A stretch of 64,000 nucleotides of DNA from Rubripirellula sp. (GTDB lineage: Bacteria > Planctomycetota > Planctomycetia > Pirellulales > Pirellulaceae). Shown here in pieces: positions 2,009-62,820 of the stretch. Position 1 is the stretch's first letter. Each line of letters starts with the position of its first letter. The notes under the pieces are model-generated. The model ran no database searches and had not been told where the DNA came from. It was given only the letters and a program-made list of their open reading frames with translations. The stretch covers positions 6,208,001-6,272,000 of the forward strand of contig OZ244207.1 of the NCBI GenBank assembly GCA_965216875.1, in the 5' to 3' direction. The position numbers and the translations under genes are program-made.

Positions 2009-2265
2009 ATACCCATCTGCTGGAGGATATCGGCGATCCGTCCAAGCGATTCTGTGAGCACAGGATGGGACTCTTCAAAGCGTTTCGCCGAGCTGGTCAC
2101 GCGGCTGCTTAGCGTTTCGCTGGCGTCTTCTTGCTGACTTAGAACAGCCTGAATTCGCGACACCGTTTCCTTGAGTCCGTCGACGTCCTCGTTATCGAGA
2201 TCGTCAGTGCTCGCCAACTCGTGACGCAAGGTTTCCAGCGCGGCCGTCAATTCTTCATGGCTCAT
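2005..2265 (-). CDS. DUF4404-like small helical protein
   Basis: C-terminal FEESHPVLTESLGRIADILQQMGI pattern; likely start is the ATG at 2265. Confidence 0.75.
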   Translation of the reverse strand: MSHEELTAALETLRHELASTDDLDNEDVDGLKETVSRIQAVLSQQEDASETLSSRVTSSAKRFEESHPVLTESLGRIADILQQMGI

Positions 2266-2413
2266 TGTCGAACATTCCAAGCATCGATTACAGATTCTTA
2301 AACGCCTCCATTCTAGCCGATCGCTCTCGCGGGTGAAGTTGAAGCGGAGAGCTGATTTCGAGTTAGAATGGATTCAGCAGGCGTTTCCCTTATCTTTTTT
2401 CATCATCAATGCC

Positions 2414-2749
2414 ATGCGTCTATTTCAAAACATCCAATCCAACCGATTGCTGTATGCCAAAGGCGTGCTCTTTCTGGTGTTGGCCGTCATTGCCGCTGCC
2501 ATGCTGATCAGCCGAGCACCGCGGCTTGATATTGCTGCGCTCTTGCTGATTTGTATTTGGGCGAGCTGCCGCAGCTACTACTTCGCATTCTACGTGATCG
2601 AGCATTACGTCGATGGCAAGTATCGATTTGCAGGTTTGTTCGACTTCTGCAAATACATCGCAGGTGGTCAAGGTGAATTGGCCAACGAGGTAGGCTGCAA
2701 CAACAATGACGTCGTCACCAACAACACTCAGGGCGAAGCTCATGAGTGA
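2414..2749 (+). CDS. Small hypothetical membrane protein
   Basis: Two TM segments and a CRSYYFAFYVIEHYVD motif; overlaps the next start. Confidence 0.6.
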   Translation: MRLFQNIQSNRLLYAKGVLFLVLAVIAAAMLISRAPRLDIAALLLICIWASCRSYYFAFYVIEHYVDGKYRFAGLFDFCKYIAGGQGELANEVGCNNNDVVTNNTQGEAHE

Positions 2750-4736: not shown

Positions 4737-4747
4737 GCATCTGGGTC

Positions 4748-5887
<1,140 letters not shown>

Positions 5888-17889: not shown

Positions 17890-18144
17890 CTAGCGACGCT
17901 TTTTAGCGGCTTTTTTCTTAGCCGTACGCTTCTTAGTAGCTTTCTTCTTGGTAGCTTTCTTCTTAGCTGCTTTCTTTTTAGCAGCCTTCTTCTTAGTCGT
18001 ACGCTTCTTAGCGGCCTTCTTCTTGGTTGCTTTCTTCTTTGCAGCCTTCTTCTTGGTCGCTCGCTTCTTAGTTACTTTCTTCTTAGCGGCCTTCTTTTTG
18101 GTCGCTCGTTTTGTAACTTTCTTCTTCGCTTTTTTCTTGGCCAC
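17890..18144 (-). CDS. Histone H1-like Lys/Ala/Thr-rich DNA-binding protein (84 aa)
   Basis: GGAGG RBS (18151-18155) then GTG at 18144; about 15 pentapeptide repeats of the KK(K/R)A(A/T) type. Confidence 0.85.
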   Translation of the reverse strand: MAKKKAKKKVTKRATKKKAAKKKVTKKRATKKKAAKKKATKKKAAKKRTTKKKAAKKKAAKKKATKKKATKKRTAKKKAAKKRR

Positions 18145-18320
18145 GTTCTTCCTCCGCAAGAAAGGAAACGTTGGCGAGTCCTCGTGACTTTTAAAACGAA
18201 ACGCTTCAGAAGCCACCGGCCACGGCTCACCAACCGTTATTTGTGGTTGAATCTCCGAGCTTCGATGACTCCTTCATTGTCGACATCGGTTTTGCTCATC
18301 CTTTCAACCGTTCAGAAACT

Positions 18321-18420
18321 GCGCGTAACTTTACGCGCTTCTGTGGATTCCGCAACATCTTTTTTGAAAAAAAGTGCTTGCGTGGAAAAAGTTTTTTGTT
18401 ACGCAGACGCGTTTTTTCAC
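18321..18420 (-). promoter_or_regulatory. Candidate sigma70 promoter with UP-like A/T tracts and an operator palindrome over the -10 element
   Basis: TTGCGG-N16-TAAAGT on the minus strand (18355-18328); inverted repeat gcgcgtaa-ct-ttacgcgc at 18321-18338. Confidence 0.5.
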
Positions 18421-18509
18421 TGCGATTAGTCACTTCTTTGCGCAACACAACGTGCAAAACGTGCGCTATAGACAAGACAAACGCGCATGCGCGCGGTGTT
18501 GGACACTTC

Positions 18510-19397
18510 CTAGTAACGCCAACCACCACGTTGTTGCAGCATCTGAAAATTTGTGATCGCAAGTGACAAAAAAAGTATGCCCATGAACATTTGGTCGTTG
18601 CCAAAACCATACGCGGCAAGCAAACCCGCAGCGATCAAACTGATCCACGTTGCTTGATCGGTGTTACCACCACCAAGTACCACCGCCGATCGACAGATGC
18701 GCCCACCATCAAGCGGCCAAACAGGAACAAGGTTTAACAACCCCCAAAGAACACTTGGCCAAATGTAAAAAATGCTGAACGCAAACAGCCCTGCGTTCTC
18801 GATCGGTTTGCCTTGAACGATCCACTCGATGTTGCCCAAACCAGCCGGCATGAGCTTAAACGCAACGACTTGGTAGTCGCCCATCTTCAGTAAACCGATC
18901 AAGATTGCCGCCGATGCCAGTTGAAATGCCGGTCCAGCAAGCGCAATCCATAGCTCTTGAGACGCGGTCAACTGCGAATAGCTGCGGCCACCACCACCAA
19001 ACGAATCGCGCGGGATCGCCAAACCACCAAAGTGGTACAGCACGATCGATGATTCGATCCCACACATGCGAAAGGCGATCGAGTGGCCAAGTTCGTGGAT
19101 CAAAATCGACACCAGCATGCACAAACCCCAAAGCACATGCAGCGCCGCCAGACCCGGTCCTCGGTCGCCAAGCGAAAACTGAACGAGTTGGATCAATCCG
19201 AACCCAAAAACCAACGCGCCGAGCCAAAAAGACCACGCAACGCGAATCGGAAACCCGAGCAGATTGAAGCGGAGGTCGTAGGGCGACGGGGTCGGTTCTT
19301 GCAGCAACATCGGGTTGGAAAGCTCTGGATCTTTGTTGTCTGTGCCAAGCCGCAGGTCGGCTTGAATCACCGGCGTCGTAAGACCGGCTCCGGACAT
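18510..19397 (-). CDS. Site-2 protease (peptidase M50)
   Basis: HELGH, IALAGP, NLVPVWPLDGG. Confidence 0.93.
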   Translation of the reverse strand: MSGAGLTTPVIQADLRLGTDNKDPELSNPMLLQEPTPSPYDLRFNLLGFPIRVAWSFWLGALVFGFGLIQLVQFSLGDRGPGLAALHVLWGLCMLVSILIHELGHSIAFRMCGIESSIVLYHFGGLAIPRDSFGGGGRSYSQLTASQELWIALAGPAFQLASAAILIGLLKMGDYQVVAFKLMPAGLGNIEWIVQGKPIENAGLFAFSIFYIWPSVLWGLLNLVPVWPLDGGRICRSAVVLGGGNTDQATWISLIAAGLLAAYGFGNDQMFMGILFLSLAITNFQMLQQRGGWRY

Positions 19398-19468
19398 GAT
19401 GATCCTACGCCGTTATTCTGTCATCGTGGCACGGCGCATGGCTCACCTTTCCTGGCAACCGGATCCGT

Positions 19469-20698
19469 TCATGGCAATCGGAACACAGAATACCTTGAAT
19501 CAGCACCTAGGTTACCAAACGTCTTACCGTACTTCTCCTTCAAGGCACGTACCTTGCGGCGGCTGATCGGATTGTAGGCTAAGTGGATCTTCGTTCGCTT
19601 GCGGCGTTTCTTGGCTCGAGCCAATTGGTCAACGCCAAGATGACCGATTCGATTTCGACGCAAATTCAACTCGACCAGGTTTTCTAGCAGATCACTCTCG
19701 CAAAGTGCTTCGATCCCATCATCGCGTATGCGATTGGATGAAAGATCGAGTTGCCTAAGATGGGGGTAGTGCTGGCACAGCTCCATCAACACATTGCTTG
19801 GACACCTGCCGCCGTAGCTGAGCCGCGATAAGTTGGGCAACGGATCATCAACGTTGAAGACATCGGGATCCGGAAGCGATCGACTTCGGATCATCAGGTC
19901 TTCGAGTTCACGACACGAAGTTCCCGATTGCAGTTTCCGAATCGCATGTTGTCCAAAGACACCCGAAACGTGCAACGTCTTGAGTTGTCGCAAGTTTGGT
20001 GCCTCTGCGAACGCTTGCAACGAATCATCGTATTCGCTGGCGAGCGTTAGCGAACGCAAGCTAGTGAGCTCGCTTGAACCGGCGATGAACTTGCCCACAC
20101 CGTGGTTGTGCCTGATCAACGACAACGATTCGAGTTTGCGGAACGAAGGCTGGTTTGCGATCAGTCGACCGATTTGCTGGGGCAATTCCGATTCGTCAAT
20201 CAACAGCGATCGAAGGTTTCGCAGTCGGCCACAGGCGAACAATCCCTCAAGCTGGCTTTCACGTGCTCGCGTGTTGAGCAGCTTCAATGACGAAAGTTGT
20301 TCGAGGTGTTCGGACTTTTGCAGGTCATCGAACTTGGCGGACGTGTAGCGAAGCACAACCGAACGCACGGGAGAATTGGCAAAGATCTCGTCTTGGAGCT
20401 TCAAGAACTTTGCAACGGAAACTTCAACCTTGTCGATGAACCCGCCGCGAGTCCCAATCACTTTTACGAAGGTCGGCACACTTCCGAAATGCCCATATTG
20501 GCGCAGCAGTTTCAGTTCACGACTTCTTAGCTTGCGGCGTTTCGGATCCCACTTGTCGATGTCGGCAAGCTGAAACTGCAATCGAATCAACTCGCCGCGC
20601 GGATCACCCTGCTCTTCCAGATAGTCGGCAAAAACGAGACGCGCGGCATCTTCGTGCGGGTTCGCGATGATCGCAGCAATGAAGTCGTCAGGTGTCAC
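19469..20698 (-). CDS. TIGR02996 domain protein with leucine-rich repeats
   Basis: FIAAIIANPHEDAARLVFADYLEEQGDPRGELIRLQ; LRRs LRQLDLSSNRIRDDG and LVELNLRRNRIG; start GTG 20698 (or TTG 20734). Confidence 0.9.
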   Translation of the reverse strand: MTPDDFIAAIIANPHEDAARLVFADYLEEQGDPRGELIRLQFQLADIDKWDPKRRKLRSRELKLLRQYGHFGSVPTFVKVIGTRGGFIDKVEVSVAKFLKLQDEIFANSPVRSVVLRYTSAKFDDLQKSEHLEQLSSLKLLNTRARESQLEGLFACGRLRNLRSLLIDESELPQQIGRLIANQPSFRKLESLSLIRHNHGVGKFIAGSSELTSLRSLTLASEYDDSLQAFAEAPNLRQLKTLHVSGVFGQHAIRKLQSGTSCRELEDLMIRSRSLPDPDVFNVDDPLPNLSRLSYGGRCPSNVLMELCQHYPHLRQLDLSSNRIRDDGIEALCESDLLENLVELNLRRNRIGHLGVDQLARAKKRRKRTKIHLAYNPISRRKVRALKEKYGKTFGNLGADSRYSVFRLP

Positions 20699-20717
20699 GT
20701 CGAAACCCCGCGGCTTG

Positions 20718-23012
20718 TTAACCAATCTCGACAAGCGATTTCAAATCGATCACCAACGGTTGGTCGCCGTCGATCGCCAACAATCGTCGTGCGATCTTGG
20801 CTACGACCTCTTGTTCGATCACACGCTGCAGCGGACGAGCCCCAAGCAACGGATCAAAGCCGACAGCCGCAATCCGTTTGACCACGGAATCGTCCCAGAC
20901 CAACGTGACCCGCTTGTCGGTCAGCGTTTCACGTTGCTGAAGTGATTCAAGTTCTTTCTCAACGATCTTTTCGATCACATCGGCTGGCAACGCATCAAAG
21001 GTCACGACTTCGTCGAGTCGGTTCAAGAACTCGGGCCGAAACTCCTGTTCAATGGCTCGTTGCAGTGCGCGATTGTCTTCGCCCGTGAATCCAATCGACG
21101 CGCTGCTTTTGGCGCCCACGTTGCTCGTCATGATGATGATCGAACCACAAAGGGTGGTCGTTCGGCCAAAACGATCGGTCAACCTTCCCTCATCAAGGGC
21201 GGACAACAAACAATCGTGGACTTCGGTCGATGCTTTTTCAAATTCATCCAACAGCAACACCGACATTGGGCGTGCTCGCAATCGCGCAATCCAAGCGGCG
21301 ACCTCACCACTCGGCTCCATCAAGAACCGATCGACGGCGTCCCAACTTCCGTACTCACTCATGTCGAGACGGACGATCGTCTTTTCAAGTAGGTCTGTGT
21401 GGCCGAACAAATAGTCGGCCAAGCTTCGAGCAAGCTGTGTCTTGCCAACTCCTGTTGGACCGCAAAACAACATCGTTGCGACAGGACGACCGGGATCACA
21501 AAGGCCCGCCTTGAGTCGCAAGATCGTATTGGAAGCCGAATCGACAGCGGAATCTTGCCCGATCACCGATTGACGTAGCGAATCGCGAACCGACTCGGCC
21601 GAAAGCGTCACCGAGTCGCGGAGCATCGCTTCAGGCAATCCCGTCAACTTCGTAAAGCGGTCGACAATGTCTCCAACCGCGATCCGCATCTTACGGGTAT
21701 CTTGCTGATCGGCGCCGTTTTGTTGTTGCCAAGTTTGGGTTGATGAATCATCAAGGGTCTGCTGAATCAGATCACCAATCAATTCAACGGTGCCGCGCGG
21801 AGGCGATTGGTACGGCATGAATTGAGCGAACAGTCGCGTCACGGTTTCCGCCGCCGACTCTTCGATCTCGATTCGGTGGTTACGGCCAGCTCCCGAGAGC
21901 ATCGTCTCAGCAATGTCCCGTGTTTGATCATGGGTGAGCGTTGGAACATTGACGATCTGAAAACACTCAACCCAACCCGGTAACAGTCGCCGCGCAGCAT
22001 CAAGTTCTTCGTGAGTCGCTTCGGCGATCACGCGCACTTCGCGTCGACGGATGTAGGGCAACAAAAACGCGGCCAGCGAATCGGTCGGTTGTGAACCACC
22101 GAGGCGCACTAAGTCGACGAGCGATGTGAACGACAGGATTCCGGATATCGACTCCAACTCGGAGATCACTTGTTCAAGCCGCTGCTCCCATTCGCCCAAG
22201 TACTGCATGCCGGCGATCAGGTTCTCGGCCGAAGATTCCCACACCAGGGGCGGCGGAGTGCGATCACCATCGATCTTGGCCTGTTGGCGCGCGTTGGTTT
22301 GATGCAGTTGCGATGCCAAACGCACAACCGTTGATTTTCCACAGCCGGATGGCCCGACCAGAATCAGGCTCGAATCGATCATCCCGCTTAAAACTTGTGC
22401 CACTTCATTGTCGCGATGCTTCAGCGGAGCTGATTTCTGTTTGCGTTGGCGAACATCGATCGGAGAGGCAACGGTCGAAAGCGTTTCGGTGTTGTGCTGT
22501 GGCTTGCGGTCTTCGACGTCGCGCAGCTTGACGCGCACCACGCGCAGTTCCGAATCCGCGGGCGGGGTGGCTGCGAGAAGTTCGCGTGAATCGATCTGTG
22601 CCGTTGCGCCACGAACCGACTCTTCGATCAGTTTCGGCAGTTCGCGAATTGCTGGGCAATGAAAAACAACATCGAAGTCGGTTAGAAAACACTCGACGCT
22701 CTTGTCGACGTAGTGACCCAAGACATACCGAACCGGCAACTTGAGTTCTCGGCTGGCGGGAAACTGTCGGTTTTCGTCACGGTAATAAAGTCGTACGCGA
22801 ACGCTGGTTTCGTTTAGTTCGAACGAGTCGATTCGCGGCCAGTATTGATCGGGCTCGCGCATTCCCTGTTTGCGCAAGTAGTCTCGCACCCAGCTGAATG
22901 CTTCGGACGCAGACGTACCGGCAGCATCCGCGTCGGGTCCGTCAACCACGCGGGCGGTGAAGATGTCTTCGGCGTACTTCGTTACAAGAACGGGAACTTT
23001 TACACTTGTCAT
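20718..23012 (-). CDS. ClpA/B-like double-AAA+ ATPase 3 (HicB-like N-terminus, IGF loop, no C-terminal extension)
   Basis: GPSGCGKS, GPTGVGKT, LLLDEFEKA, MTSN, SIGF, FRPEFLNRLD, GARPLQR. Confidence 0.9.
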   Translation of the reverse strand: MTSVKVPVLVTKYAEDIFTARVVDGPDADAAGTSASEAFSWVRDYLRKQGMREPDQYWPRIDSFELNETSVRVRLYYRDENRQFPASRELKLPVRYVLGHYVDKSVECFLTDFDVVFHCPAIRELPKLIEESVRGATAQIDSRELLAATPPADSELRVVRVKLRDVEDRKPQHNTETLSTVASPIDVRQRKQKSAPLKHRDNEVAQVLSGMIDSSLILVGPSGCGKSTVVRLASQLHQTNARQQAKIDGDRTPPPLVWESSAENLIAGMQYLGEWEQRLEQVISELESISGILSFTSLVDLVRLGGSQPTDSLAAFLLPYIRRREVRVIAEATHEELDAARRLLPGWVECFQIVNVPTLTHDQTRDIAETMLSGAGRNHRIEIEESAAETVTRLFAQFMPYQSPPRGTVELIGDLIQQTLDDSSTQTWQQQNGADQQDTRKMRIAVGDIVDRFTKLTGLPEAMLRDSVTLSAESVRDSLRQSVIGQDSAVDSASNTILRLKAGLCDPGRPVATMLFCGPTGVGKTQLARSLADYLFGHTDLLEKTIVRLDMSEYGSWDAVDRFLMEPSGEVAAWIARLRARPMSVLLLDEFEKASTEVHDCLLSALDEGRLTDRFGRTTTLCGSIIIMTSNVGAKSSASIGFTGEDNRALQRAIEQEFRPEFLNRLDEVVTFDALPADVIEKIVEKELESLQQRETLTDKRVTLVWDDSVVKRIAAVGFDPLLGARPLQRVIEQEVVAKIARRLLAIDGDQPLVIDLKSLVEIG

Positions 23013-26000
23013 TTCGTTGCCTCTTTGTGATCGGGCAAGAATTCGACACTACGGCGCGACTGGCGAACCAATTTCATGAGCGCCACCTGGCCCAACGATT
23101 GGCTGACCGCTGCGCCGCTGACCAAGTCGACCAGTGGCCCACCCGATTGAAGCACGCGTCGAATCGGCGAGATTCGTTCAGGCTGTGGCTCGTTCATCCA
23201 GCGTTGGTGTGCATCGTCGTCTGATTCGTTCGCATCGAGCGGTCTTGCACTCACCTCAGCTAACAAAAACTCACCGGTTGGTCGGACGATCAGCCAGCCG
23301 CCGAGCAAATGGTCGATCGTGGCTTTGGCGAGTGCTCCTTGGACGATGTAAAAACAGACATCGCGACTCGCATCCGCAACAAGGTTTTCATCGCCAACCA
23401 TCCATTGGTGAATGATCGACGACACGATGCACGGTTCAACGTACGAATCGACTTCGGGCCATTGCTTTGACCATTCCGACGACGGTCGATGAAACTCGGA
23501 CCGTCCGTACCAACGGATCGACAGCGCCCACCGATGCGACATCCCACGTGCGGAGAGTTGTCCATGCAATCGCCCCATCTCGTTCAAGAACTGATCTCGC
23601 GTTTCGTCCAACTCGCCAGAATCAACATCAACGAGTGAATCCTGCAGGTAGTCCATGATGTCATCGACCGCTTGCAAATCGCGCATGTCGATTGTGCTGT
23701 TTGGTTCGAAGCGTTTTCCAACCATGCTCGATCCTGGAACAGGAACCGGTGTCGATTGCGGCTTCTGCAGCTTTGGTTTCTGCTGAGTCTCGGTCAGTTT
23801 GCGCAGCGTCTGGCGACACTCCAGCAAACTGTCGCGAAGTGTCATCGTTTCAAACTGTTTGGGATCGACGCCTTCGCCGCCGAGTTCGAAACTTAGTGGC
23901 ACGCCTTCGATTTCGTCGGCAATCTCGTCGAGCCACAATTGACTGCGTCGCAGAAGCTCGGTCAGCGGCATGTTGGCGTCAGTCGCAACCGGCTTGGCGT
24001 ATTCGATCGGCTGCCAGCGCGTTTGAACGGATTCGCCATCAAGGTAGAGGCGCAAGATCGTTGGTTGGTCCGTCGGTGTGGACGCGAGAACTTGCGACGC
24101 GGGTCCGACAAGATCACGTTCGATTTGACGCTTAAGCGCGCGAGCCCCCATCGACGGGTCGTAACCTCGCGACGCCGTCCATTTGATGGCCGCTTCGTCC
24201 ACATCGATCAAAACGCTGCGTCGCTGCAAACCGTCTCGTTGAAGCACATCATCCAATTGCATCCAGGCGATCGATTCCATCGTCTCGGTTGACAATCGCT
24301 CAAAGCTCAACACATCGTCGATACGATTGAAGAACTCGGGGCGAAAGAACTCTTGGGCCGCTTTGCGATGAACATCGCCGATGACTTTTTCATCGGTCAC
24401 ATCAGAAAAGCCGCTACCACGCCCGGACTGTCGTGACCCGAGGTTGCTTGTCATCAAGATCAACAGTCCTGACAGATCCACGGTGCGTCCCCGCGCATCA
24501 CTCAGCCGCGCTTCACCAATCGCGTGCAATAGGACATCAAGAACGGTTGGGTGCGCCTTTTCGATCTCGTCTAGCAACAGGACTGCGTGCGGTCGGCGGC
24601 GAACGGCACTGGTCAACATTCCGTCGGGGGCATCGAACGTTCCAATCAAGCGCGACGCGGAAGCCGGAGACGACAATTCGTTCATGTCCAACCGAATCAA
24701 CCCGCCGCTATCGAACATGCATTCAGCAACCGCCTTGGCAAGTTGCGTCTTGCCGACGCCAGTTGGGCCAACCAACAAAAAGGTTCCCAACGGCCGATTG
24801 GTATCATTCATCTGAGCCGCAGCGATCATGATTCGATCAATCAGTTTTTCGACCGCCGCATCCTGCCCAACGACTGACTGGCGAATCGAGCGGTCCATCG
24901 CAACGCGCGTTAACGCTTGACGGCGATCGATCATCGATGGAAGCAAGCCCGAACGCGATTGAAATTCGTTGATCGCCAACTCACGGTTGACCATTCGGCC
25001 CTGGGGGCGGGCGGCGAGTCGGTAAAGCGCCGCAGCCGCCTTGCCTGGCAACACCGAAGATCGATCAAATCGATCGTACAGCGACACGATTTCGGGGATC
25101 ACGTCGGTATCGAAAAACAATTTGCCATTGGCTTCGAGCTTGCGCTGAATGCCGACCAGCGTTTCCATGGTGCGGCGAGTGTCGAGCGCTTCGGTCGGTA
25201 CCACGACCATCCGATCGGCCAAAGTTCGATCACGTTCGCGAAGGATCGCCCAAGCTTCGGGAGTCATTTCAGCGAGAAGACGTACGGGCCGAATATCAAG
25301 TTGAGCGCGCAGCGTGTCGGCGACACACATACTGCTGTCTCTGCACTTGCCTGCCTCGTAAAGCCCAAGCAAGTCATCGAAGTACAAGATGTGATCGTAG
25401 CGATAGGCGTGCTTCAAAATCCCGAGCACACGCTCCTGCCATTGACCCAAGTAGCTCATGCCCGAAATCAAACGCGCGGGCGAAAGATGCCAAACTTGAC
25501 CCCGTGTTGCCGATTTCGATCGCAAGCGCCGACGCCGCACTGCACCTTCGATGCGCGCGGTCTTGCCGCTGCCGGATGGCCCGACCAAAACCACACCTCG
25601 CCGGTCGCCAACTTCCATCAAGTGCATGAGTCGTTGAACGTCGTCGCCCACACTGATCGGATCGCAAAGTTCGTCGATATCGACCCAGTTCAAACAACGT
25701 CCGACCTGGCGCAATTGCGAAGCACCATCCGAGACGTCTTGTCCGCCGAGTAGCGCTCGAAGCGGGTCGACCGCCTTCTTCTGTGCTTTCTGGGCCATCA
25801 CCTCGATCGTGACGTAGTCGACCCAAGCTTTGCCTTCGATGCTGTGGTGTTCCACAGGGTATTCAGGACGATCCTTACGAATCTTGCGAAAGTAGGACTC
25901 GTAGACTTCGGCTGCCCGCGTCTCGATCGATTCGCCTTCTTCAACGTCGAACCACGAGTCGAAAAGCGTGGGTGAAAACACCAGGCGACGTCCATGCCGA

Positions 26001-26299
26001 ATCATGCTGACGAGCAACAACTTGAGGTTGGCGGTGCGATCGCGGAGGTCTAGCGACAATTTGACCAATCGGTCATCCATCATGTCGGCTTCATGCCACT
26101 GCAATAGCTGTTGGTGGTCGCTCTCGCGCGCAAGTGGCGCCAGTTCGACGCGAAGTTTGTTTGTCAGTTTGGCGATGACCTTGCCCAATTCGGTTCCCCG
26201 CATGACGGGCTCAGGGAAAAAGAGTGGGCGCACCGTGATCGGCGGAGTGGTTCCCCGATTGCGGCGTTGCTGGACGTAAATAGGTATGGTGATTTTCAT
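23009..26299 (-). CDS. ClpA/B-like double-AAA+ ATPase 2 with diverged release-factor-like C-terminal domain
   Basis: GPSGSGKT, GPTGVGKT, LLLDEIEKAH, FRPEFFNRID, GARALKR; ATGA overlap with ATPase 3. Confidence 0.9.
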   Translation of the reverse strand: MKITIPIYVQQRRNRGTTPPITVRPLFFPEPVMRGTELGKVIAKLTNKLRVELAPLARESDHQQLLQWHEADMMDDRLVKLSLDLRDRTANLKLLLVSMIRHGRRLVFSPTLFDSWFDVEEGESIETRAAEVYESYFRKIRKDRPEYPVEHHSIEGKAWVDYVTIEVMAQKAQKKAVDPLRALLGGQDVSDGASQLRQVGRCLNWVDIDELCDPISVGDDVQRLMHLMEVGDRRGVVLVGPSGSGKTARIEGAVRRRRLRSKSATRGQVWHLSPARLISGMSYLGQWQERVLGILKHAYRYDHILYFDDLLGLYEAGKCRDSSMCVADTLRAQLDIRPVRLLAEMTPEAWAILRERDRTLADRMVVVPTEALDTRRTMETLVGIQRKLEANGKLFFDTDVIPEIVSLYDRFDRSSVLPGKAAAALYRLAARPQGRMVNRELAINEFQSRSGLLPSMIDRRQALTRVAMDRSIRQSVVGQDAAVEKLIDRIMIAAAQMNDTNRPLGTFLLVGPTGVGKTQLAKAVAECMFDSGGLIRLDMNELSSPASASRLIGTFDAPDGMLTSAVRRRPHAVLLLDEIEKAHPTVLDVLLHAIGEARLSDARGRTVDLSGLLILMTSNLGSRQSGRGSGFSDVTDEKVIGDVHRKAAQEFFRPEFFNRIDDVLSFERLSTETMESIAWMQLDDVLQRDGLQRRSVLIDVDEAAIKWTASRGYDPSMGARALKRQIERDLVGPASQVLASTPTDQPTILRLYLDGESVQTRWQPIEYAKPVATDANMPLTELLRRSQLWLDEIADEIEGVPLSFELGGEGVDPKQFETMTLRDSLLECRQTLRKLTETQQKPKLQKPQSTPVPVPGSSMVGKRFEPNSTIDMRDLQAVDDIMDYLQDSLVDVDSGELDETRDQFLNEMGRLHGQLSARGMSHRWALSIRWYGRSEFHRPSSEWSKQWPEVDSYVEPCIVSSIIHQWMVGDENLVADASRDVCFYIVQGALAKATIDHLLGGWLIVRPTGEFLLAEVSARPLDANESDDDAHQRWMNEPQPERISPIRRVLQSGGPLVDLVSGAAVSQSLGQVALMKLVRQSRRSVEFLPDHKEATK

Positions 26300-26315
26300 G
26301 TTGATCGCGGTCGTG

Positions 26316-29300
26316 TTACAGGGATTCCGCGTCTGTCAAATCGAACGTCTCGTCTCCGTCTCCTTCTGTCTCGTCCAACGCGGCCCACACACGACGCTTG
26401 GTTTCTTCTTCGATTGCGGCGTCGAGCCATCGCCCTTCGCGATCACTCTTGATCGTGTGGGTTGATGACAGCGTGAATTCCGAGACCAACCCCGTATCGA
26501 GGTCGTAATAGCGTCGTGGCGCCGCTGGCATTTGGTAGTCACGCGTCGGCAACCAGTTGGGCGCCACGTAATCGATCGGCGCCCCGGTGTGCTTGCTGAC
26601 CAAGATCGATTCACCGATTTGGTCGGTAATGCTCGACTTTCGAAACGTGTGGACGCCTTCCTCTGTGCTCATCGACAACTCCGCACCTTCACCCCGAAAT
26701 GTCATCATCAACGCCAACGTATTCTCCGGGATCAGGGGAAGCGTGGTCGGGTGCGTCATGAGGTACGCCGCCAAACTTGGCTTGGTATCGGAGGTTTTGT
26801 TCTCTTCCTTCAAGACTTCCAAGTTGTCTCTTTGCGTTGCGATTCGAAACGAAGCGTCTTCGGTCCATCCGTCACAATAGACTTTGGGATCCGCCTTGGA
26901 CTCTTTTTCGCGGCGAAGCAGCGCATGGACCTGCAGTTTCCACTCGCGCCGAGAGGCAACGTACGTGTAACCAGTCAGGAGGCGTTGAGCGACGTGAAAG
27001 TTCGGGCCTGACAGCACCAACGAGATCTGCTGGCGGCCCATCGGCTTTTCGCTATTGAGTTCGCATAGCAACCGCCACATTCGCTCTTGTAGGTCTTCGG
27101 TACGCTTTTTGGTCTCTTCAAGATCAATCTCCTCGTCAAGGTAATACTTCACCATGAAGTCGGATTCGATCGCGTTGATGCGCTCGGTGAGCCGTGCGAT
27201 GTCGCGCAGTCGGTTGCGTTTTTGTTCCAACTGCACAGCCAACGGGCCATGCGCAACTTTGTCGCGACGCTTTTCGTCGCGGACTTTGCGGCGCATCCGC
27301 TTGATCTTGCGCGAAATCAGAGTGCATTCGTTGCGGAGTTTGCGAACCGCGCTGCAGCGAGCAAGCGACTGACTGCGACGACGCAGCGTCAGCACATCGG
27401 TCAACATCGACCAAACGTTTTCGGATGCGCAATTGTCGTTGTGCCCCCGAATTGACTCGATCGAGACATTCACCTGTTCGTTTTGTTCGCTCGATTCCGA
27501 TAGTTGGACACTTGCTTCCAGCCTGTCAGAGCGCTTGTTGCAAATCGCTTCCGCTAACGGGACAAGGACCGTCTTTTCAATTTCGCGCGCAAGCGGACGA
27601 GCACCATACTTGGCTTGATAGCCATCGCTCGACAGTTGGCGGACGGCGTCCTCGCTGACGCTCAATCCACGACCTCGTTCCTTCCAACCGCTTCGACGTT
27701 GCAACTCGTCCAGACGCAATTTCGCGATCTGTTGAACGATCGCTGGCGACAACGGGTCGTACGTCAGAATTCGGTCAATGCGATTGAACATTTCGGGGCG
27801 CAAGAATTCACGCACCTTCTTTTCGAAGTGTCCGCGGTAGCGCTGCACCGATTGTGTGTCGGCGAGTCCAAGTGGGACTTCACGATACGACTCGACGCCC
27901 AGGTTGCTTGTCATGAGGACAATTGAATTGCGAAAGTCGGCGACGCGTCCATGACCATCGGTCAATCGGCCTTCACCGAGCACCTGAAGCAATAAGTCAA
28001 AGACCGAGGGATGCGCCTTTTCGAATTCATCCAAGAGCACCAGCGAAAAAGGTTGCGCGCGTACCGCCGAGGTCAAGATACCCTCAGGGTGCATCGCATC
28101 ACCAATCAATCGGCCGACGGCAGCCGGCGTCGACATTTCCGACATGTCAATCCGCACCAGCCGCGACACATCGCTGTAAATCAGCCGTGCCAGCGCCTTG
28201 GCGGTTTCGGTCTTGCCAACGCCTGTTGGTCCGATCAACAACAAGGAAGCCAGGGGACGATCGCCACGCGACAGGTCGGCCGCGAGCGTTGCAATCATGT
28301 CCACCAAGGTCTTGATGACCGATGGTTGGCCCAAAACCTGTGAGGCGAGTTTCTCTTCGATCTCATTTAGGTCGGGTCGCACACTGTCATCGATCAAGAA
28401 GGGAGGCAACCCGGTTTGGCGCCCGAATGACTCGATCACCCGCGCGACATCCAACGTGTCGCCGGGCTTAAGTTCGCTCATCGTTGCGTGAAAGAACGAG
28501 AGTGGACGGCCTGGCGAGGCGGCGTCCGTTCGAAAGCGTCGATGAAGTCGGTCGAGTACCTGCAGCGCGGACGGTTCGACTTCGGGAAGTCTTGAGTCTT
28601 GCACACGTGGCTTGACTCGCTTTCGTTTCTTTCGTTTCTTTGCAATTTCGGCCGTGATGTTCACTGGTCGCCACGCCGCCGCGGAATCGAGCAAGATCGA
28701 GCGCGTTTGATCGGGCGCCGGCTCTTCGATGCGCATCGTCGTCAATGCGGCGAGCAACCGTGGCTCGACGCGTTGCATTCTTGACAACTGTTCCGGCGTG
28801 CATTCGATCACCGCGCGCAGCGATCCACTCGCGAGTCGGGGTGCCAACAAGGAACCGCATCCACCGCTACCACGAAGCCTCCCCGACTCACTGAGTTCAA
28901 CCAGGTTCCCAAGGTGAACCACGGACGGAAAACGCGACGCCTCTTCGGCCATTTTTAAACATTGCTGCTGCCACATCCCGAATCCACTTTGGCCCGAAAT
29001 GAGCCTCGATCCGTCGGTCGCCCAGCATTGGATCGCTTGCATGCCAAATTCATCACGCTGGCGCACCCATTGGTGAAACACGGCCGTCTTGCCAACGCCC
29101 GAAGGTCCGACCAGCAAGACACTGCGCGCTCGGCTGCTCGAAAGAAGCGAAGCCAATTGCTGGACTTCGTCGTCGCGGTGGTAGGCAGGTCGCAAAGTGT
29201 CGCGGCGCAACCGAGTCGCAACCGTGCCGAGCGTTGGCGTCTTGCTTTTCGGTTTTTCGTTGGCTTTTCGCTTTTTCTCGCTGGGCGTCAGCAGGTCGAC

Positions 29301-29798
29301 CTTGAAACGGTGCTGCTCAAGCGAAGCAGTCTGGCTTTTTCCGAGCGCGGCCAATCCCATGAGCTCCCAAGAGCCTTGTCGGCGCAGCGCCGATCGAATC
29401 TGTTCCTGGACCAGACTTTCCACGTCCGTCTTTGGCGTCGAGACGATGGTCAGTGCGAGGGACGGAACGTAAGTCACGATCAAACTGGCGTCTTGTTCCC
29501 AAACGAAGGTGTCGAAGTCGACATCAATCGGTTCGCGCCAAGCATCCGATCGCTTGGGCGGCGCGATCTCGACGGTCACCCTTTCTTGGCGCGCAGGACC
29601 GCGGACAAGTAATTCGACCAGCTCGCCACCGTCACTGCCTTTGCAGGTATCGATGACATACCGACGAACCAAACGGTGCGCGTTGTCTGGATTTCCGGCG
29701 GCGATCGCAATCTCAGGAAAACCAATCGGACGAACGAGAGTGAGTTCACCATGAGGAACGATGACCAAAGGCAAATCGATGTTGATCGACTGGGGCAT
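26316..29798 (-). CDS. ClpA/B-like double-AAA+ ATPase 1 with release-factor (PCRF)-like C-terminal domain
   Basis: GPSGVGKT, GPTGVGKT, LLDEFEKAH, LRPEMFNRID, GARPLAR; C-terminal FRGEGAELSMSTEEGVH. Confidence 0.9.
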   Translation of the reverse strand: MPQSINIDLPLVIVPHGELTLVRPIGFPEIAIAAGNPDNAHRLVRRYVIDTCKGSDGGELVELLVRGPARQERVTVEIAPPKRSDAWREPIDVDFDTFVWEQDASLIVTYVPSLALTIVSTPKTDVESLVQEQIRSALRRQGSWELMGLAALGKSQTASLEQHRFKVDLLTPSEKKRKANEKPKSKTPTLGTVATRLRRDTLRPAYHRDDEVQQLASLLSSSRARSVLLVGPSGVGKTAVFHQWVRQRDEFGMQAIQCWATDGSRLISGQSGFGMWQQQCLKMAEEASRFPSVVHLGNLVELSESGRLRGSGGCGSLLAPRLASGSLRAVIECTPEQLSRMQRVEPRLLAALTTMRIEEPAPDQTRSILLDSAAAWRPVNITAEIAKKRKKRKRVKPRVQDSRLPEVEPSALQVLDRLHRRFRTDAASPGRPLSFFHATMSELKPGDTLDVARVIESFGRQTGLPPFLIDDSVRPDLNEIEEKLASQVLGQPSVIKTLVDMIATLAADLSRGDRPLASLLLIGPTGVGKTETAKALARLIYSDVSRLVRIDMSEMSTPAAVGRLIGDAMHPEGILTSAVRAQPFSLVLLDEFEKAHPSVFDLLLQVLGEGRLTDGHGRVADFRNSIVLMTSNLGVESYREVPLGLADTQSVQRYRGHFEKKVREFLRPEMFNRIDRILTYDPLSPAIVQQIAKLRLDELQRRSGWKERGRGLSVSEDAVRQLSSDGYQAKYGARPLAREIEKTVLVPLAEAICNKRSDRLEASVQLSESSEQNEQVNVSIESIRGHNDNCASENVWSMLTDVLTLRRRSQSLARCSAVRKLRNECTLISRKIKRMRRKVRDEKRRDKVAHGPLAVQLEQKRNRLRDIARLTERINAIESDFMVKYYLDEEIDLEETKKRTEDLQERMWRLLCELNSEKPMGRQQISLVLSGPNFHVAQRLLTGYTYVASRREWKLQVHALLRREKESKADPKVYCDGWTEDASFRIATQRDNLEVLKEENKTSDTKPSLAAYLMTHPTTLPLIPENTLALMMTFRGEGAELSMSTEEGVHTFRKSSITDQIGESILVSKHTGAPIDYVAPNWLPTRDYQMPAAPRRYYDLDTGLVSEFTLSSTHTIKSDREGRWLDAAIEEETKRRVWAALDETEGDGDETFDLTDAESL

Positions 29799-29978: not shown

Positions 29979-32138
29979 TCAATCGCGCAAGTTATCGATC
30001 AAGAACGCCCAAAGATCGGCGTACTCATCAATGCTCTTGCTGACCGGCGTTCCCGCACCATGGCCGGCTCGTGTTTCGATGCGAATCAACGTTGGATTAT
30101 TGCATGATTGCGCGGCCTGTAGGGCAGCGGCAAACTTGAAACTGTGGCCAGGCACGACACGGTCGTCACGGTCTGCGGTCGTCACCAGTGTGGCCGGATA
30201 GCAAGTACCCGGTTTCAGATTGTGGAGCGGTGAATAGGACAACAAGTTGTCAATCTGATCCTCTTCGTCGCTACTGCCGTACTCGGTCACCCACGCCCAC
30301 CCGATGGTGAATTTGTGATAGCGAAGCATGTCCATCACGCCGACCGCAGGCAAACTCGCCCCAAACAACTCAGGTCGCTGTGTGATCGCCGCGCCGATCA
30401 GCAAGCCGCCATTGCTGCGGCCCGAGATGGCGAGTTTCTTGGGCTTGGTGTAACCCTCGGCGATCAGGTGTTCGGCAGCCGCAAAAAAGTCATCAAAGAC
30501 ATTTTGCTTCTTCAATCGCATTCCATCCTCGTGCCACTGACGACCGTACTCGCCGCCCCCACGCAGGTTCGCAACGGCATAGATGCCTCCACTTTCGATC
30601 CAACCAGCTTTGGCTGGCGAAAACGAGGGCGTGATTGAGATATTGAACCCACCGTACGCGTAAAGCAACGTGCGATTGTTCCCGTCAAGCTTCGAGTCTT
30701 TGTGACGCGTCACGATGATAGGAACCTTCGTTCCATCTTTGCTCTCGCAGAACAATTGTTCTGTCACATAATCGGAAACTTCAAAGTCGACTTTCGGTTG
30801 CCGCCAGAGATCCGCTTGATTGTTGCCAAGATCAAGTCGATAAATCGAACTCGGTGTGACATAGTTTGTGAAGCTAAAGAACGTTTCCTCGGCATCTTGT
30901 CGGCCACCAAAACCGCTGACACTGCCGACCCCGGGAAGCTCGAGTTCATCGATCAGGTTTCCGCCGAGTCCGTGCCGCGTCACCTTTCCTCGCGCATCTT
31001 TCAACGACCGACAGTAGAAGGTGTCGCCGAAAAGACTGACCGATTCGACAACATCATCCGATTCGGCAATCACACTTTTCCAGGCGTCACGGTCGGAGTT
31101 GCCAACTTCAACGGCGATCAGGCGACGCTTGGGCGCTTCGTTGTCGGTAAGGAAATAGAGCGTGTCGTCTCGAGAAGCGATCCATTCATAGTCCGCATCA
31201 AAGCCGGTGATAATCGGTTCGACTTCAGAATTAGGATCTCGCAAATCTTTGACGAAGATCTGCGACTTCGGTTCACTTCCCTTCCAGTTGTAAATCACCA
31301 AGTAACGACCGTCGTCAGTCACCGCTGGCGAGAACCCCCACTTGGGATGATCAGGACGTTGTAGAACCAGTGTGTCGTCGCTTTGGTCGTCACCGATTTT
31401 GTGGAAGTAGAGTTTTTGGTTTTCGTTGGTTCCGGTAAGCAACTCCCCTTCGGCAGGTGCTTCGTACCGTCCGTAAAAGAACCCACTGCCATCGGGCATC
31501 CAAGCAATTCCGCTGAATTTGACCCACTTGATTTCGTCTTCCAGGTCTTTGCCAGTGGCAACGTCACGAACTTTCCATGTTCGCCAATCGCTGCCGCCAT
31601 CAGCTAATCCGTACGCCAACAGTTTCCCGTCGTCACTTGGCGTCGCGCCCGCCAATGCGATCGTGCCATCCTTACTTAACGTGTTTGGGTCGATCAACAC
31701 TTCGCGTTCGGCATCAAGCGACGATGCCTTGTAAAAAACGCTTTGGTTTTGCAACCCGTCGTTGTGCGAATAGAAGTAGGTGTCGCCGCGACGACGCGGC
31801 AATCCGAATCGCTCGTAGTTCCAAAGTTGTTCCAAACGTTTGTGCATTGACTCGCGTTCAGGAATCGAATGCAAGTACTTGTCCGTGACTTCGTTCTGTG
31901 CCTTGACCCACGCAGCCGTTTCATCGCTTTCGGTGTCTTCCAGCCAACGGTAGGGATCTTTGACGACGCGCCCGTGATAGTCATCCTTTACGTCAACGGT
32001 CGTGGTTTCGGGATAAGTCATGGACGATTCGCTTCCTTTCGCGGGTTGTTGGCAGTAAGCACGTGGCATCGCCACGAGAACCGAACTTGCCGCGATGACA
32101 AATTGCCCAGCGATAAATCGAAATCGGCGAAAACTCAC
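29979..32138 (-). CDS. Prolyl oligopeptidase (S9A), probably exported
   Basis: DPYRWLED, GRSNGG nucleophile, DDRV, AGHG; start uncertain (GTG 32138 yields a signal peptide). Confidence 0.93.
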   Translation of the reverse strand: MSFRRFRFIAGQFVIAASSVLVAMPRAYCQQPAKGSESSMTYPETTTVDVKDDYHGRVVKDPYRWLEDTESDETAAWVKAQNEVTDKYLHSIPERESMHKRLEQLWNYERFGLPRRRGDTYFYSHNDGLQNQSVFYKASSLDAEREVLIDPNTLSKDGTIALAGATPSDDGKLLAYGLADGGSDWRTWKVRDVATGKDLEDEIKWVKFSGIAWMPDGSGFFYGRYEAPAEGELLTGTNENQKLYFHKIGDDQSDDTLVLQRPDHPKWGFSPAVTDDGRYLVIYNWKGSEPKSQIFVKDLRDPNSEVEPIITGFDADYEWIASRDDTLYFLTDNEAPKRRLIAVEVGNSDRDAWKSVIAESDDVVESVSLFGDTFYCRSLKDARGKVTRHGLGGNLIDELELPGVGSVSGFGGRQDAEETFFSFTNYVTPSSIYRLDLGNNQADLWRQPKVDFEVSDYVTEQLFCESKDGTKVPIIVTRHKDSKLDGNNRTLLYAYGGFNISITPSFSPAKAGWIESGGIYAVANLRGGGEYGRQWHEDGMRLKKQNVFDDFFAAAEHLIAEGYTKPKKLAISGRSNGGLLIGAAITQRPELFGASLPAVGVMDMLRYHKFTIGWAWVTEYGSSDEEDQIDNLLSYSPLHNLKPGTCYPATLVTTADRDDRVVPGHSFKFAAALQAAQSCNNPTLIRIETRAGHGAGTPVSKSIDEYADLWAFLIDNLRD

Positions 32139-32475
32139 GTCCAATCCTTTCAGTGCTCTATTGCGTTGATTCTTGGTGCTTTGCATGCAACCGAAGCGAG
32201 GCATCTGACGCCGGTTTCCCCGATCATGGGAGGTCCCCCATCGCCGGAATTCAACCATCGCCAATTTCGCTCACCTCGATGCTCCAACGTAACCGAATCG
32301 GACGCTACGATGTAGCCAATCGCTTTGCCCCTCCCATTGGCGGGCGTTAGCGAGTTGTGGGCAGACTTGATCGGGCGACAAACGGTCACGTTGATGAAAG
32401 CAGAATCTTTGGGCAGCCTTCATCAAACGCATCGGGCGCCGCGCCGCGTCATTTGAAAAAGTAGGAAGACACATT

Positions 32476-61718: not shown

Positions 61719-62820
61719 ATGGATGCTGAATTGGTCCAGCGCAGCGAAAAGATCCGTCAGCGCCTGAAACAACTCGGAGACTCTCTTTGACCACGCTGGC
61801 AAGCGTGATCAGATCAAGGCGATTGAGGCCCAAATGGGGGAATCCGGCTTCTGGGATGACAACGAAGCGGCTCAAAAGGTGATCTCCGAATTGAAGGGAC
61901 TGAAGGTCGTGGTTGGACCGCTCGATGAGCTGTCCAGTTCGGTCGAGGACTTCGAAGCGCTCTTTGAGATGGCTGATGAGGACGAATCGTTGGCCGAGGA
62001 AGTGACTTCGGAAGTCGGCCGCCTCGAAGGGATTCTGGACGATCTGGAACTCAAAGCTCTGCTGAACGGTCCCAACGATTCGGCTGGCGCGATCGTGTCG
62101 ATCAACGCCCGCGATGGGGGTACTGACGCCAACGACTGGGCCGACATGCTGCTGCGCATGTATTCGGCATGGGCCGTGGGCCAAGAGTACAAGATCGAAC
62201 TGATGGACGAACAGAAAAACGAAGAGGCGGGGATCAACCACGCCACGATCGCTGTTCGTGGACCGATGGCCTACGGCTACCTCAAAGGTGAGGAAGGCGT
62301 CCATCGGTTGGTGCGGATCAGCCCGTTCAACAGCGAAGGTAAACGACAAACGAGTTTTGCAGCTGTCACCGTCTCGCCCGAAATCGATGACTCGATCGAA
62401 GTCGATATCGAAAAGAAGGATGTTCGTGAGGACACCTATCGCGCGGGCGGTGCCGGTGGTCAACACGTCAACAAGACAGACAGTGCCATTCGTTTGACGC
62501 ACTTGCCAACCAATGTTGTCGTTCAGTGCCAAAACGAACGCAGCCAGCATCAAAACCGCGCAACGGCTTGGAAGATGTTGCGCGCCAAAATGGCGCGTTT
62601 GGAAGAAGAACGCCGCGAAGCGGAAGAGGCCAAGAAATATGGAACTCAACCGAAGACCGGTTTCGGAAGCCAAATTCGCAACTACTTCCTGCATCCTGAC
62701 CAACGGGTCAAAGATGCACGCACCGGACACTACGTCGGTAACTTCAACAGTGTCCTCGACGGAAGCGAGCTGCAAGGATTCTTTGACGCCTTCCTCCGCT
62801 GGAAAGCGGGCGAAGAATAG
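61719..62820 (+). CDS. prfB: Peptide chain release factor 2 with programmed +1 frameshift
   Basis: ATG 61719, in-frame CTT-TGA-C at 61785-61791; the +1 frame continues into an ORF with SPF and GGQ. Confidence 0.96.

Follow-up and report, generated by a model that had tools for sequence, protein, structure and literature searches.

Three adjacent genes, here called A, B and C, encode two-ring ATPases of the Clp/Hsp100 type on a 64,000-nucleotide stretch of the Rubripirellula sp. genome (contig OZ244207.1, positions 6,208,001 to 6,272,000 of the forward strand; hereafter the window). Comparison of their sequences indicates that A, B and C are anciently diverged paralogs that have been kept as a conserved, co-inherited unit. 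We propose tentatively, at somewhat below an even chance, that they form one conserved machine of the Clp/Hsp100 family: a mixed hexamer, probably coupled to ClpP, with arms derived from release factors (RFs) aimed at the ribosomal A site. The window sits in a single-contig genome of 8,264,643 bp. The three genes lie on the minus strand together with a fourth, which encodes a protein with a TIGR02996 domain and leucine-rich repeats (LRRs), in a block that spans 19469-29798. As the original prediction had described, the four genes are co-oriented and tightly packed. A 16-nt gap separates gene A (26316..29798, 1160 aa) from gene B (23009..26299, 1096 aa), and B overlaps gene C (20718..23012, 764 aa) in an ATGA. 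The junction of C with the LRR gene (19469..20734, minus strand, 421 aa from a TTG start) is a 17-nt overlap. If translation starts instead at the GTG at 20698, preceded by a GGGG run, the junction becomes a 19-nt gap, the figure given in the original prediction. The block is flanked by a prolyl oligopeptidase gene upstream (29979..32264) and a Peptidase_M50 gene downstream (18510..19397). A scan for promoters and terminators found sites at numbers not above those in shuffled sequence (2 vs 5.4; 24 vs 18.8 +/- 4.2).

All three proteins begin with a HicB-like N-domain, followed by a first AAA+ module (D1) and an active second module (D2). D1 is degenerate in A and C and has an FDD Walker B motif in B. 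After D2 and its ClpB_D2-small domain, A continues into a release-factor module that lacks the GGQ motif, and B into a diverged, release-factor-like C-terminal domain. C carries a SIGF loop in D2 and has no such module.

We first consider how far the arrangement is conserved. Examination of 33 C-type loci (the window, 5 found earlier and 27 from a phylum sample), which stem from Planctomycetota and one Prosthecobacter (Verrucomicrobiota) record, showed a conserved triad rather than unlinked singletons. The complete series A>B>C was present in the same order at 28 of the 33 loci, at one of which C was split in two frames. Contig ends of 4-7 kb truncated three further loci, among them one with a B-type C-terminal fragment and another with an A-type fragment. 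At the 21 loci with corrected starts, a 4-nt overlap joined A and B in 14 and B and C in 10, and all A/B and B/C gaps fell between -14 and +79 nt. The domain profiles of the triad matched nothing at E<=1e-3 in the examined loci outside the triad loci. A pattern search of contigs for related loci returned mostly canonical Clp genes, because one of the two patterns was the universal D2 Walker B motif, and found triads only at L001 and L014.

The triad was common in one family and sparse elsewhere. A search with the first 460 residues of C returned 152 proteins, which by name came from Pirellulales, other Planctomycetota, Verrucomicrobiales, Acidobacteriota and Eremiobacterota. Among 41 relatives, A, B and C were all present in 4 genomes (three of the same genus and one of another genus), and in the remaining relatives the matches were all weak and fell on frames as long as canonical Clp proteins. 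C-type matches occurred in 28 of 401 Planctomycetota genomes, representing 17 of 288 genera, and in one Planctomycetota family the triad was present in 19 of 23 genomes, including 6/6 of those at least 90% complete. In a sample of 301 genomes of Verrucomicrobiota, the phylum of the Prosthecobacter record, one genome had a C-type match; the other matches were single ones near 1e-17 and fell almost entirely on frames as long as a canonical Clp protein. Five of the 301 genomes in an Acidobacteriota sample had a C-type match, each together with two further frames of 1098-1261 aa. These frames were in tandem in two genomes (G795 and G767, judged by coordinates only) and partly resolved in a third (G995).

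Phylogenetic analysis of 69 ATPase cores separated A, B and C from the rest by one branch each, with SH-aLRT (Shimodaira-Hasegawa-like approximate likelihood-ratio test) support of 98, 98 and 99. The tree comes from a quick IQ-TREE run. The same sub-groupings were repeated inside the A, B and C clades, giving parallel inner topologies. With pairwise identities of 27-34% and three separate clades, the proteins are highly diverged paralogs and not products of a recent duplication, in agreement with the original prediction. As far as sequence can tell, conserved order, overlapping genes and parallel phylogenies are what the subunits of one complex look like. The alignments and the tree omit six complete triads (L088, L093, L095, L098, L099 and L100), chosen by no formal criterion to limit redundancy with close relatives; the domain profiles recovered all six. 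The alignments and the tree also exclude split or truncated loci. At one locus of a same-genus genome (L083, 12277-14647, plus strand), C falls into two frames (600 and 210 aa) through either a frameshift or an assembly error.

We assessed the ATPase cores against Pfam and NCBIfam. Each of A, B and C contained an AAA_2 module (E 1e-33 to 7e-41) and a ClpB_D2-small domain (E 2e-12 to 2e-17); the first AAA+ module gave weaker P-loop matches, and every protein had two Walker A motifs. The expectation of two AAA+ modules per ATPase was thus confirmed. ClpB and ClpA were the nearest NCBIfam models (260-308 bits vs cut-offs of 993-1232), and the top-scoring model was TIGR03346, matched over D2 at 292-308 bits vs an equivalog cut-off of 1232. 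Because these scores are far under the cut-offs, A, B and C belong to none of the named Clp types. Clp_N was detected neither in the full Pfam scan nor when the first 200 residues were scanned at E<=10. The spacing between the two Walker A motifs was 271-298 aa, compared with 418 aa in the ClpB and 337 aa in the ClpC of the same genome, and therefore leaves no room for a middle domain. The absence of both a Clp-N repeat domain and a ClpB middle domain had been correctly foreseen.

The state of the catalytic motifs was read from an alignment of 22 A, 22 B and 23 C orthologs with the ClpB and ClpC of the same genome. In D1, Walker A was retained by all three proteins, as was an aromatic pore loop with the consensus GM.Y.G.W (F in A), and the Arg-finger pair (ERRF position) was unconserved in A, B and C alike. 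The Walker B consensus was hlGnL in A and yFDDl in B, with no conserved acidic pair in C; an acidic Walker B was thus gone from A and C and kept, as FDD, in B alone. In the window, D1 of A (28902..29108, minus strand) comprises Walker A GPSGVGKT (aa 231-238), pore loop SGQSGFGMWQQQ (268-279) and the degenerate Walker B VVHLGNL (293-299). The D1 motifs of B (within 24401..25582, minus strand) are Walker A (aa 240-247), pore loop SGMSYLGQWQER (279-290) and Walker B ILYFDDL (304-310). Those of C (within 21081..22355, minus strand) are Walker A GPSGCGKS (aa 220-227), pore loop AGMQYLGEWEQR (267-278) and the degenerate Walker B ILSFTSL (292-298). These motif states suggest that D1 of each subunit is probably able to bind ATP and unable to hydrolyse it.

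D2 was intact in its catalytic residues. Walker A, Walker B (DE), sensor 1, Arg finger and sensor 2 were all present in A, B and C. In A (27858..28232, minus strand), D2 contains Walker A (aa 523-530), the shortened pore loop GDAMHPEG (566-573), Walker B LVLLDEFEK (586-594) and a ClpP-type loop VPLGLAD (641-647). The same elements lie in the intervals given above for the D1 motifs of B (Walker A 511-518, pore region GTFDAPDG 553-560, Walker B 573-581, loop RGSGFSD 627-633) and of C (Walker A 518-525, pore region MEPSGEVAAW 565-574, Walker B 585-593, loop ASIGFTG 638-644).

We observed an h-G-F/L loop after sensor 1 of D2 in A, B and C. It aligned with the QFGFQ loop of the genome's own ClpC and had no counterpart in its ClpB. 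When tripeptides were counted by eye, G-F was present in 23/23 C sequences and in 19/22 A sequences, the other 3 of which belong to the same genus as the window and have LGL. The 21 B rows seen comprised 13 GF, 4 GL, 3 GV and 1 GM. The coupling to ClpP that the original prediction had inferred is supported insofar as a ClpP-type loop is present. Two tandem clpP genes, unlinked to the triad, lie elsewhere (G000, C1 3440706-3441906; 245 and 286 bits) and are the sole CLP_protease matches in the genome.

We next turn to the C-terminal modules. That of A covers approximately aa 795-1145 (26364..27416, minus strand). A profile built from the last 406 residues of 22 A sequences matched Thermus and E. 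coli RF2 in the PDB (E 1.6e-5 to 1e-3), over RF2 residues 3-173 and then at the motif G..A...L..E.G.H. Against an alignment of 22 RF1/RF2 sequences from related genomes, hhalign gave 94.9% (E 4.6e-8). The RF motifs matched by the module are L..MY..A...G..VEV and G..A...L..E.G.H, and in the window protein the E-G-H element lies at aa 1046-1052 and RRYY at 1094-1098. An AlphaFold2 (AF2) model of the A C-terminus (mean predicted local distance difference test score, pLDDT, 77.8) gave 38 Foldseek matches at E<=1e-3 (best 2.2e-7), and the matches listed were all class-I release factors. The structural search VIA returned Z scores of 10.9-14.6 over its best 41 rows, all of them RF1, RF2 or mtRF1.

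Those structural matches that were confined to RF domains 2/4 aligned ~148 residues over RF1 106-357 at a root-mean-square deviation (rmsd) of 3.1, and ~100 residues of RF domain 3 had no counterpart in the A module. In line with this, the distance from E-G-H to RRxY was ~45 residues in the A alignment vs ~130 in release factors. GGQ occurred at no conserved place, being scattered in 5/22 A and 2/22 B sequences. On profile and model evidence, the A module is RF domain 1 plus the decoding-site superdomain 2/4, without the GGQ peptidyl-hydrolase domain.

The C-terminal domain of B (aa 746-1096; 23012..24064, minus strand) is akin to the A module around the G..A...L..E.G.H motif, where hhalign between the two gave 94.3% over 46 columns. 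Its four nearest sets in the ESM-Atlas were all PCRF (scores 0.75-0.82, leads only). Compared directly with release factors, the B domain gave 13% in hhalign (E 0.002) over the homologous stretch, and the B profile had no significant match in the PDB. These data suggest that the B C-terminus is probably a more diverged relative of the A module. C ends directly after D2-small and has no release-factor module. Release-factor-like C-termini had been predicted for two of the ATPases; this held strongly for A, by profile, Foldseek, VIA and hhalign, and for B only indirectly, via A. A complex prediction with the C-terminal domains of A and B scored 0.00, which counts neither way.

Pfam gave no usable match for the C-terminal pieces, and a single-sequence search with the A C-terminus found 3 proteins only. 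The A profile matched 994 clusters at 50% identity (734 at 1e-10, 307 at 1e-30). Among the 150 clusters listed, the A-type module was always at the protein C-terminus, and full-length proteins measured ~1060-1200 aa.

A second architecture with a similar combination of domains was found outside the triads. A six-frame search with the Pfam PCRF model identified the canonical genes for RF1 and RF2; it also hit a 1200-aa frame in a relative without the triad. This protein and two found earlier are single-gene, Clp-type ATPases with PCRF, termed here solo proteins (L143 9065-12640, minus strand; L025 1458-5042, plus strand; L002 9128-12550, plus strand). Their PCRF domains were above the Pfam cut-off (26-46 bits vs 24), and their Clp cores were 32-36% identical to A, B and C. 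HEAT repeats were present at the N-terminus of 2 of the 3, GGQ was found in 0/3 and the h-G-F loop in 3/3, and a degenerate domain 3, read by eye, was still seen in 2/3. The A and B C-terminal profiles missed the L143 protein at E<=10, and those of L002 and L025 at E<=1e-3. By domain content, the solo proteins look like a sister architecture of the triad. Since they also combine a GGQ-less PCRF with a Clp core, the joining of dead release factors to Clp motors is a wider theme, with at least two architectures. In the L002 record (Hyphomicrobium), a 1335-aa protein with TIR and WD40 domains (1785-5792, plus strand) is encoded two genes upstream of the solo gene, and RecG and Mfd genes lie downstream.

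The N-domains (aa 1-200 of A, 29199..29798; aa 1-208 of B, 25676..26299; aa 1-185 of C, 22458..23012; all minus strand) were common to all three subunits. No Pfam family fitted the first 200 residues of A, B or C. Alignments of the A and B N-domains matched that of C with hhalign values of 96.4% (E 1.2e-9) and 94.6% (E 7e-8), respectively. The profile of the C N-domain matched TTHA1756 (2yzt, E 2.6e-4) and HicB (6u0i, E 0.76) among PDB sequences. An AF2 model of this domain (pLDDT 87) had no Foldseek match in the PDB at E<=1e-3. An exhaustive VIA search with the same model gave HicB 6g1c_V as its best row (Z 7.9, rmsd 2.6, 80/85 residues), in agreement with the profile matches. The top 7 rows were 5 HicB entries (6g1c, 6g1n, 6u0i, 5yrz and 4p78; Z 7.9/7.5/6.5/6.2/6.0 to the five) and 2 uncharacterised small proteins. 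The models thus indicate that the N-domains of A, B and C are HicB-like in fold; with Z <8, which is middling, this is a fold-level call only. The C domain has a long beta-hairpin inserted in this fold. There is no DNA-binding C-terminal domain of the HicB type, and the N-domain runs straight into D1. The HicB-like N-termini foreseen for all three ATPases were accordingly recovered at the level of fold, from profile and VIA evidence for C and by matching of A and B to C.

The proposed machine would work as follows. A, B and C would join in a mixed hexamer such as A2B2C2; the linkage of the genes, their overlaps, the parallel trees and the uneven decay of D1 lead us to infer assembly in one ring. 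The hexamer would dock on ClpP through its G-F loops, as the h-G-F/L loop suggests. The dead release-factor arms of A and B would engage the ribosomal A site or the factor-binding site. It is release-factor homology alone that points to this step, and the presence of the module in A makes a link to the ribosome a reasonable one to draw. An ATP-driven unfoldase or protease could thereby be brought to stalled, vacant or hibernating ribosomes. Possible targets for removal there would be a bound factor, a ribosomal protein and a nascent chain; alternatively, the ribosome itself might be pried apart. The HicB-like N-domains would serve as a collar that binds substrates or adaptors. A division of labour among the three ATPases, as originally suggested, is borne out in part: two features are shared unequally, the release-factor module, which A and B have and C lacks, and the acidic D1 Walker B, kept by B alone, whereas the ClpP-type loop and the HicB-like N-domain occur in all three.

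A more specific form of this proposal, which we regard as doubtful, is that the triad is a bacterial counterpart of Pelota-ABCE1 or Vms1-Cdc48, assembled from components that are themselves bacterial. In Pelota-ABCE1 and Vms1-Cdc48, an A-site binder of release-factor type works with an ATPase, and Pelota lacks GGQ. Here, a ClpP-coupled ring of three paralogs would place release-factor arms in the A site of stalled or idle ribosomes and would extract and degrade a substrate or dismantle the ribosome.

Several observations weigh against a ribosome-directed, ClpP-coupled mixed ring. The A alignment had no conserved column for the codon-reading tripeptide (PxT/SPF) after its invariant Gly and near-invariant His, and domain 3 has been lost from the A module. 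The Pfam PCRF model stayed below its threshold on these proteins, with 1 of 22 A-type C-termini matched (E 0.045), and the six-frame search with the Pfam PCRF model had no match on A or B at E<=1. For B, the link to release factors is transitive only. The modules sit on the C-terminus, which is the ClpP-docking face, and the two functions could clash sterically. The D2 pore loop was 4-5 residues shorter than one with GYVG and had no conserved aromatic in A (20/22 rows seen) or C (22/23), that of B being judged from the alignment consensus alone; a D2 pore without aromatics is unexpected in a motor feeding substrate to ClpP. Strict A-B-C linkage is not universal: C was alone at 2 of the 33 loci (L102 and L105), with >9 kb of other genes upstream, and the three genes were dispersed in the Acidobacteriota genomes G845 and G833. 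Finally, no translation or RNA-repair gene was a conserved neighbour at the loci examined.

The first alternative, rather unlikely in our judgement and the best placed of the four, is a proteostasis unfoldase, either ClpP-coupled or stand-alone, that has no ribosome link and has re-used domains derived from release factors and HicB as scaffolds for adaptors or substrates. The N-domains and extra domains of Clp proteins commonly serve as docks for substrates or adaptors (ClpA/ClpC/ClpX). The A module, without domain 3 and any recognisable codon-reading motif, would fit such a use, as would the unrelated housekeeping genes at the flanks. The C-terminal domains are also fast-evolving, given the 3 proteins found by single-sequence search and the barely recognisable domain of B. 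Against this, RF domains 1 and 2/4 matched only A-site binders (RF1, RF2, mtRF1 and PrfH) in the structure and profile searches run. The module has moreover been kept across the ~994 clusters at 50% identity, and it recurs in the independent solo architecture.

A role in anti-phage defence or other conflict, raised in the original prediction, is improbable. Under this explanation the release-factor arm would sense or attack translation on infection, and the AAA+ rings would be the effector or its activator. The system is patchy outside one family (4/41 relatives, 28/401 Planctomycetota, 1/301 and 5/301 in the Verrucomicrobiota and Acidobacteriota samples), an LRR gene is inserted behind the operon in the window genome, and one solo relative adjoins a TIR-WD40 gene. 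The PADLOC models DolB and PDC-M37B matched A, B and C (E 1e-16 to 5e-30). In A and B, however, these matches covered only the shared AAA_2 motor (profile ~128-301 of 375-390); the matches of C ran on to the C-terminal end of the profile. The near-universal presence in one family, at 45-94% identity, argues for vertical inheritance. The neighbours (TsaD, PNPOx, URO-D, cytochrome bd and epimerase) are housekeeping genes and not defence islands, and no nuclease, TIR or other effector domain was fused or conserved nearby. With PADLOC matches of A and B confined to the generic D2 and housekeeping flanks, the anti-phage role gained no specific support.

We give quite a small chance to a third possibility, a factor for ribosome hibernation or parking whose dead release-factor arms fill the A sites of idle ribosomes until ATP hydrolysis by D2 frees them, with no role for ClpP. 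A D2 pore loop without the threading aromatic and a catalytically dead D1 would suit it, and the module occurs mostly in large-genome, slow-growing phyla. Relatives of release factors that lack GGQ and act as A-site hibernation factors, such as Balon, do exist (PMC10901736). On the other side, conservation of the h-G-F/L loop where ClpP would dock, in all three subunits, makes little sense unless ClpP or some comparable partner binds there, and a machine of ~600 kDa would be an expensive plug.

Three separate homo-hexamers with different clients and mere co-regulation are likewise quite improbable: the Clp/Hsp100 ATPases characterised so far are homo-hexameric, C-type genes stand alone at L102 and L105 and solo Clp-PCRF proteins exist, but gene order and 4-nt overlaps are conserved across phyla, the trees of A, B and C run in parallel, and the loss of Arg fingers from every D1 with an acidic Walker B in B only better fits fixed neighbours in one ring.

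The proposed mixed ring shares features with several known systems. A, B and C resemble ClpA and ClpC in having two AAA+ modules with an AAA_2-type D2 and D2-small; the D1-D2 spacing without a long middle domain is ClpA-like, and the h-G-F/L loop aligned with the FGF loop of the genome's own ClpC. They differ from both in the HicB-like N-domain that replaces Clp_N, in a D1 without Arg fingers and, in A and C, without an acidic Walker B, and in a shortened D2 pore loop without GYVG. There are also three obligate paralogs rather than one gene, and a release-factor module is added at the C-terminus. The likeness to ClpB/Hsp104 lies in the best NCBIfam score, that of the ClpB model TIGR03346 over D2; unlike ClpB, the three proteins have no middle domain and carry a ClpP-type loop that ClpB lacks. 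C shares the fold of its N-domain with the HicB antitoxin, from which it differs in lacking the DNA-binding C-terminal domain, in the inserted long beta-hairpin and in its position before an AAA+ ring. The proteasomal Rpt1-6 and Pex1/Pex6 are also sets of paralogous subunits with some inactive nucleotide sites and fixed ring positions; these are eukaryotic.

The C-terminal module of A is homologous to domain 1 and domains 2/4 of class-I release factors. Unlike RF1/RF2 it has no domain 3 or GGQ, lacks a conserved SPF/PxT and is attached to an AAA+ motor. PrfH, of the same class, has GGQ but no domain 1. The solo HEAT-Clp-PCRF proteins share the Clp core, the h-G-F loop and a GGQ-less C-terminal release-factor module, and differ in being the product of a single gene, in a HEAT N-terminus (2/3) and in a PCRF close enough to reach the Pfam cut-off. 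Pelota-ABCE1, Vms1-Cdc48 and Balon are functional analogies only, with no homology implied: they have the archaeo-eukaryotic aeRF1 fold and are not fused to an ATPase, whereas the A module has the bacterial RF fold and is fused. Balon is a GGQ-less relative of release factors that sits in the ribosomal A site without peptidyl-tRNA hydrolysis (PMC10901736).

Clp/Hsp100 machines are textbook homo-hexamers in which N-domains and adaptors choose the targets. The triad would depart from this picture in three ways: a ring apparently built of three anciently fixed paralogs, a dead D1 ring combined with an odd D2 pore, and an RF-derived module fused to the motor. We know of no described bacterial Clp/Hsp100 ring made of three paralogs, and none was found in the literature searched. 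Neither a Clp-PCRF fusion nor a HicB-like N-domain on a Clp protein, a three-paralog Clp operon or the solo form was described in that literature, which took in only a minority of subscription journals. If the arms bind ribosomes, the machine would be a direct physical link in bacteria between an AAA+ unfoldase or protease and the A site, for which the same literature offered no precedent; the known rescue routes pass substrates to ClpXP indirectly, through tags. The dead release-factor copy on two subunits hints at an undescribed bacterial way of acting on ribosomes. Should the Pelota- or Vms1-like proposal be true, the triad would define a new pathway of ribosome quality control or turnover, with the HEAT-Clp-PCRF proteins as its single-gene sister form. 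The family is not rare (the 994 clusters above), and cultured organisms are among its carriers. A term search of the text of a survey of release-factor evolution (Burroughs & Aravind 2019, PMC6514570) gave no instance of 'Clp'.

The LRR gene proved to be a local addition. The identity given to it earlier was correct: its product has an N-terminal TIGR02996 domain (63.3 bits vs a cut-off of 29.05), followed by LRR_6 and other LRR families. TIGR02996 occurs in 15 copies scattered over the genome, of which this gene is one. No homolog of the LRR protein was found at the other 32 loci (BLASTP, E<=0.01), and at both same-genus loci the Peptidase_M50 gene follows C directly with no LRR gene between. 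The 18001-20000 interval of the window, which holds the LRR and M50 genes, has its lowest G+C (0.515 vs 0.53-0.585 elsewhere). Because homologs are absent from the other loci, the LRR gene is, on this comparative evidence, an insertion specific to this lineage and lies outside the conserved module. It is co-oriented and probably co-transcribed with the triad. The partnership as adaptor or sensor that had been envisaged for its product was ruled out by this absence, both at the other loci and between C and Peptidase_M50 in the same-genus loci.

We also looked for a conserved fourth gene and found none. Neighbour families recurred only among close relatives, and Pfam showed unrelated housekeeping genes. 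Flanking genes across the loci encoded cytochrome bd, an ABC transporter, S26 peptidase, TsaD, PNPOx, URO-D, epimerase and similar proteins. At L102 (2185-9639, plus strand), in a Planctomycetota genome that is 59% complete, the C-type gene without A and B is directly preceded by genes for a kinase-WD40 protein (1097 aa), an unassigned 476-aa open reading frame and a DO-GTPase2-like protein.

Two other genes of the window lie in conserved surroundings. A canonical class-I release-factor gene (61807-62367, plus strand; PCRF 183 bits, 350-aa frame, grouping with RF2-type rows) is located ~32 kb from the triad. The distance is similar in same-genus genomes (2536747 vs a triad at 2497-2506 kb in G002; 105908 vs 136-145 kb in G001), and its proximity is probably plain synteny. 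A ComEC-type gene (32476-35016, plus strand) with Competence, DUF4131 and metallo-beta-lactamase domains is divergent from the oligopeptidase gene and is syntenic in the same-genus genomes.

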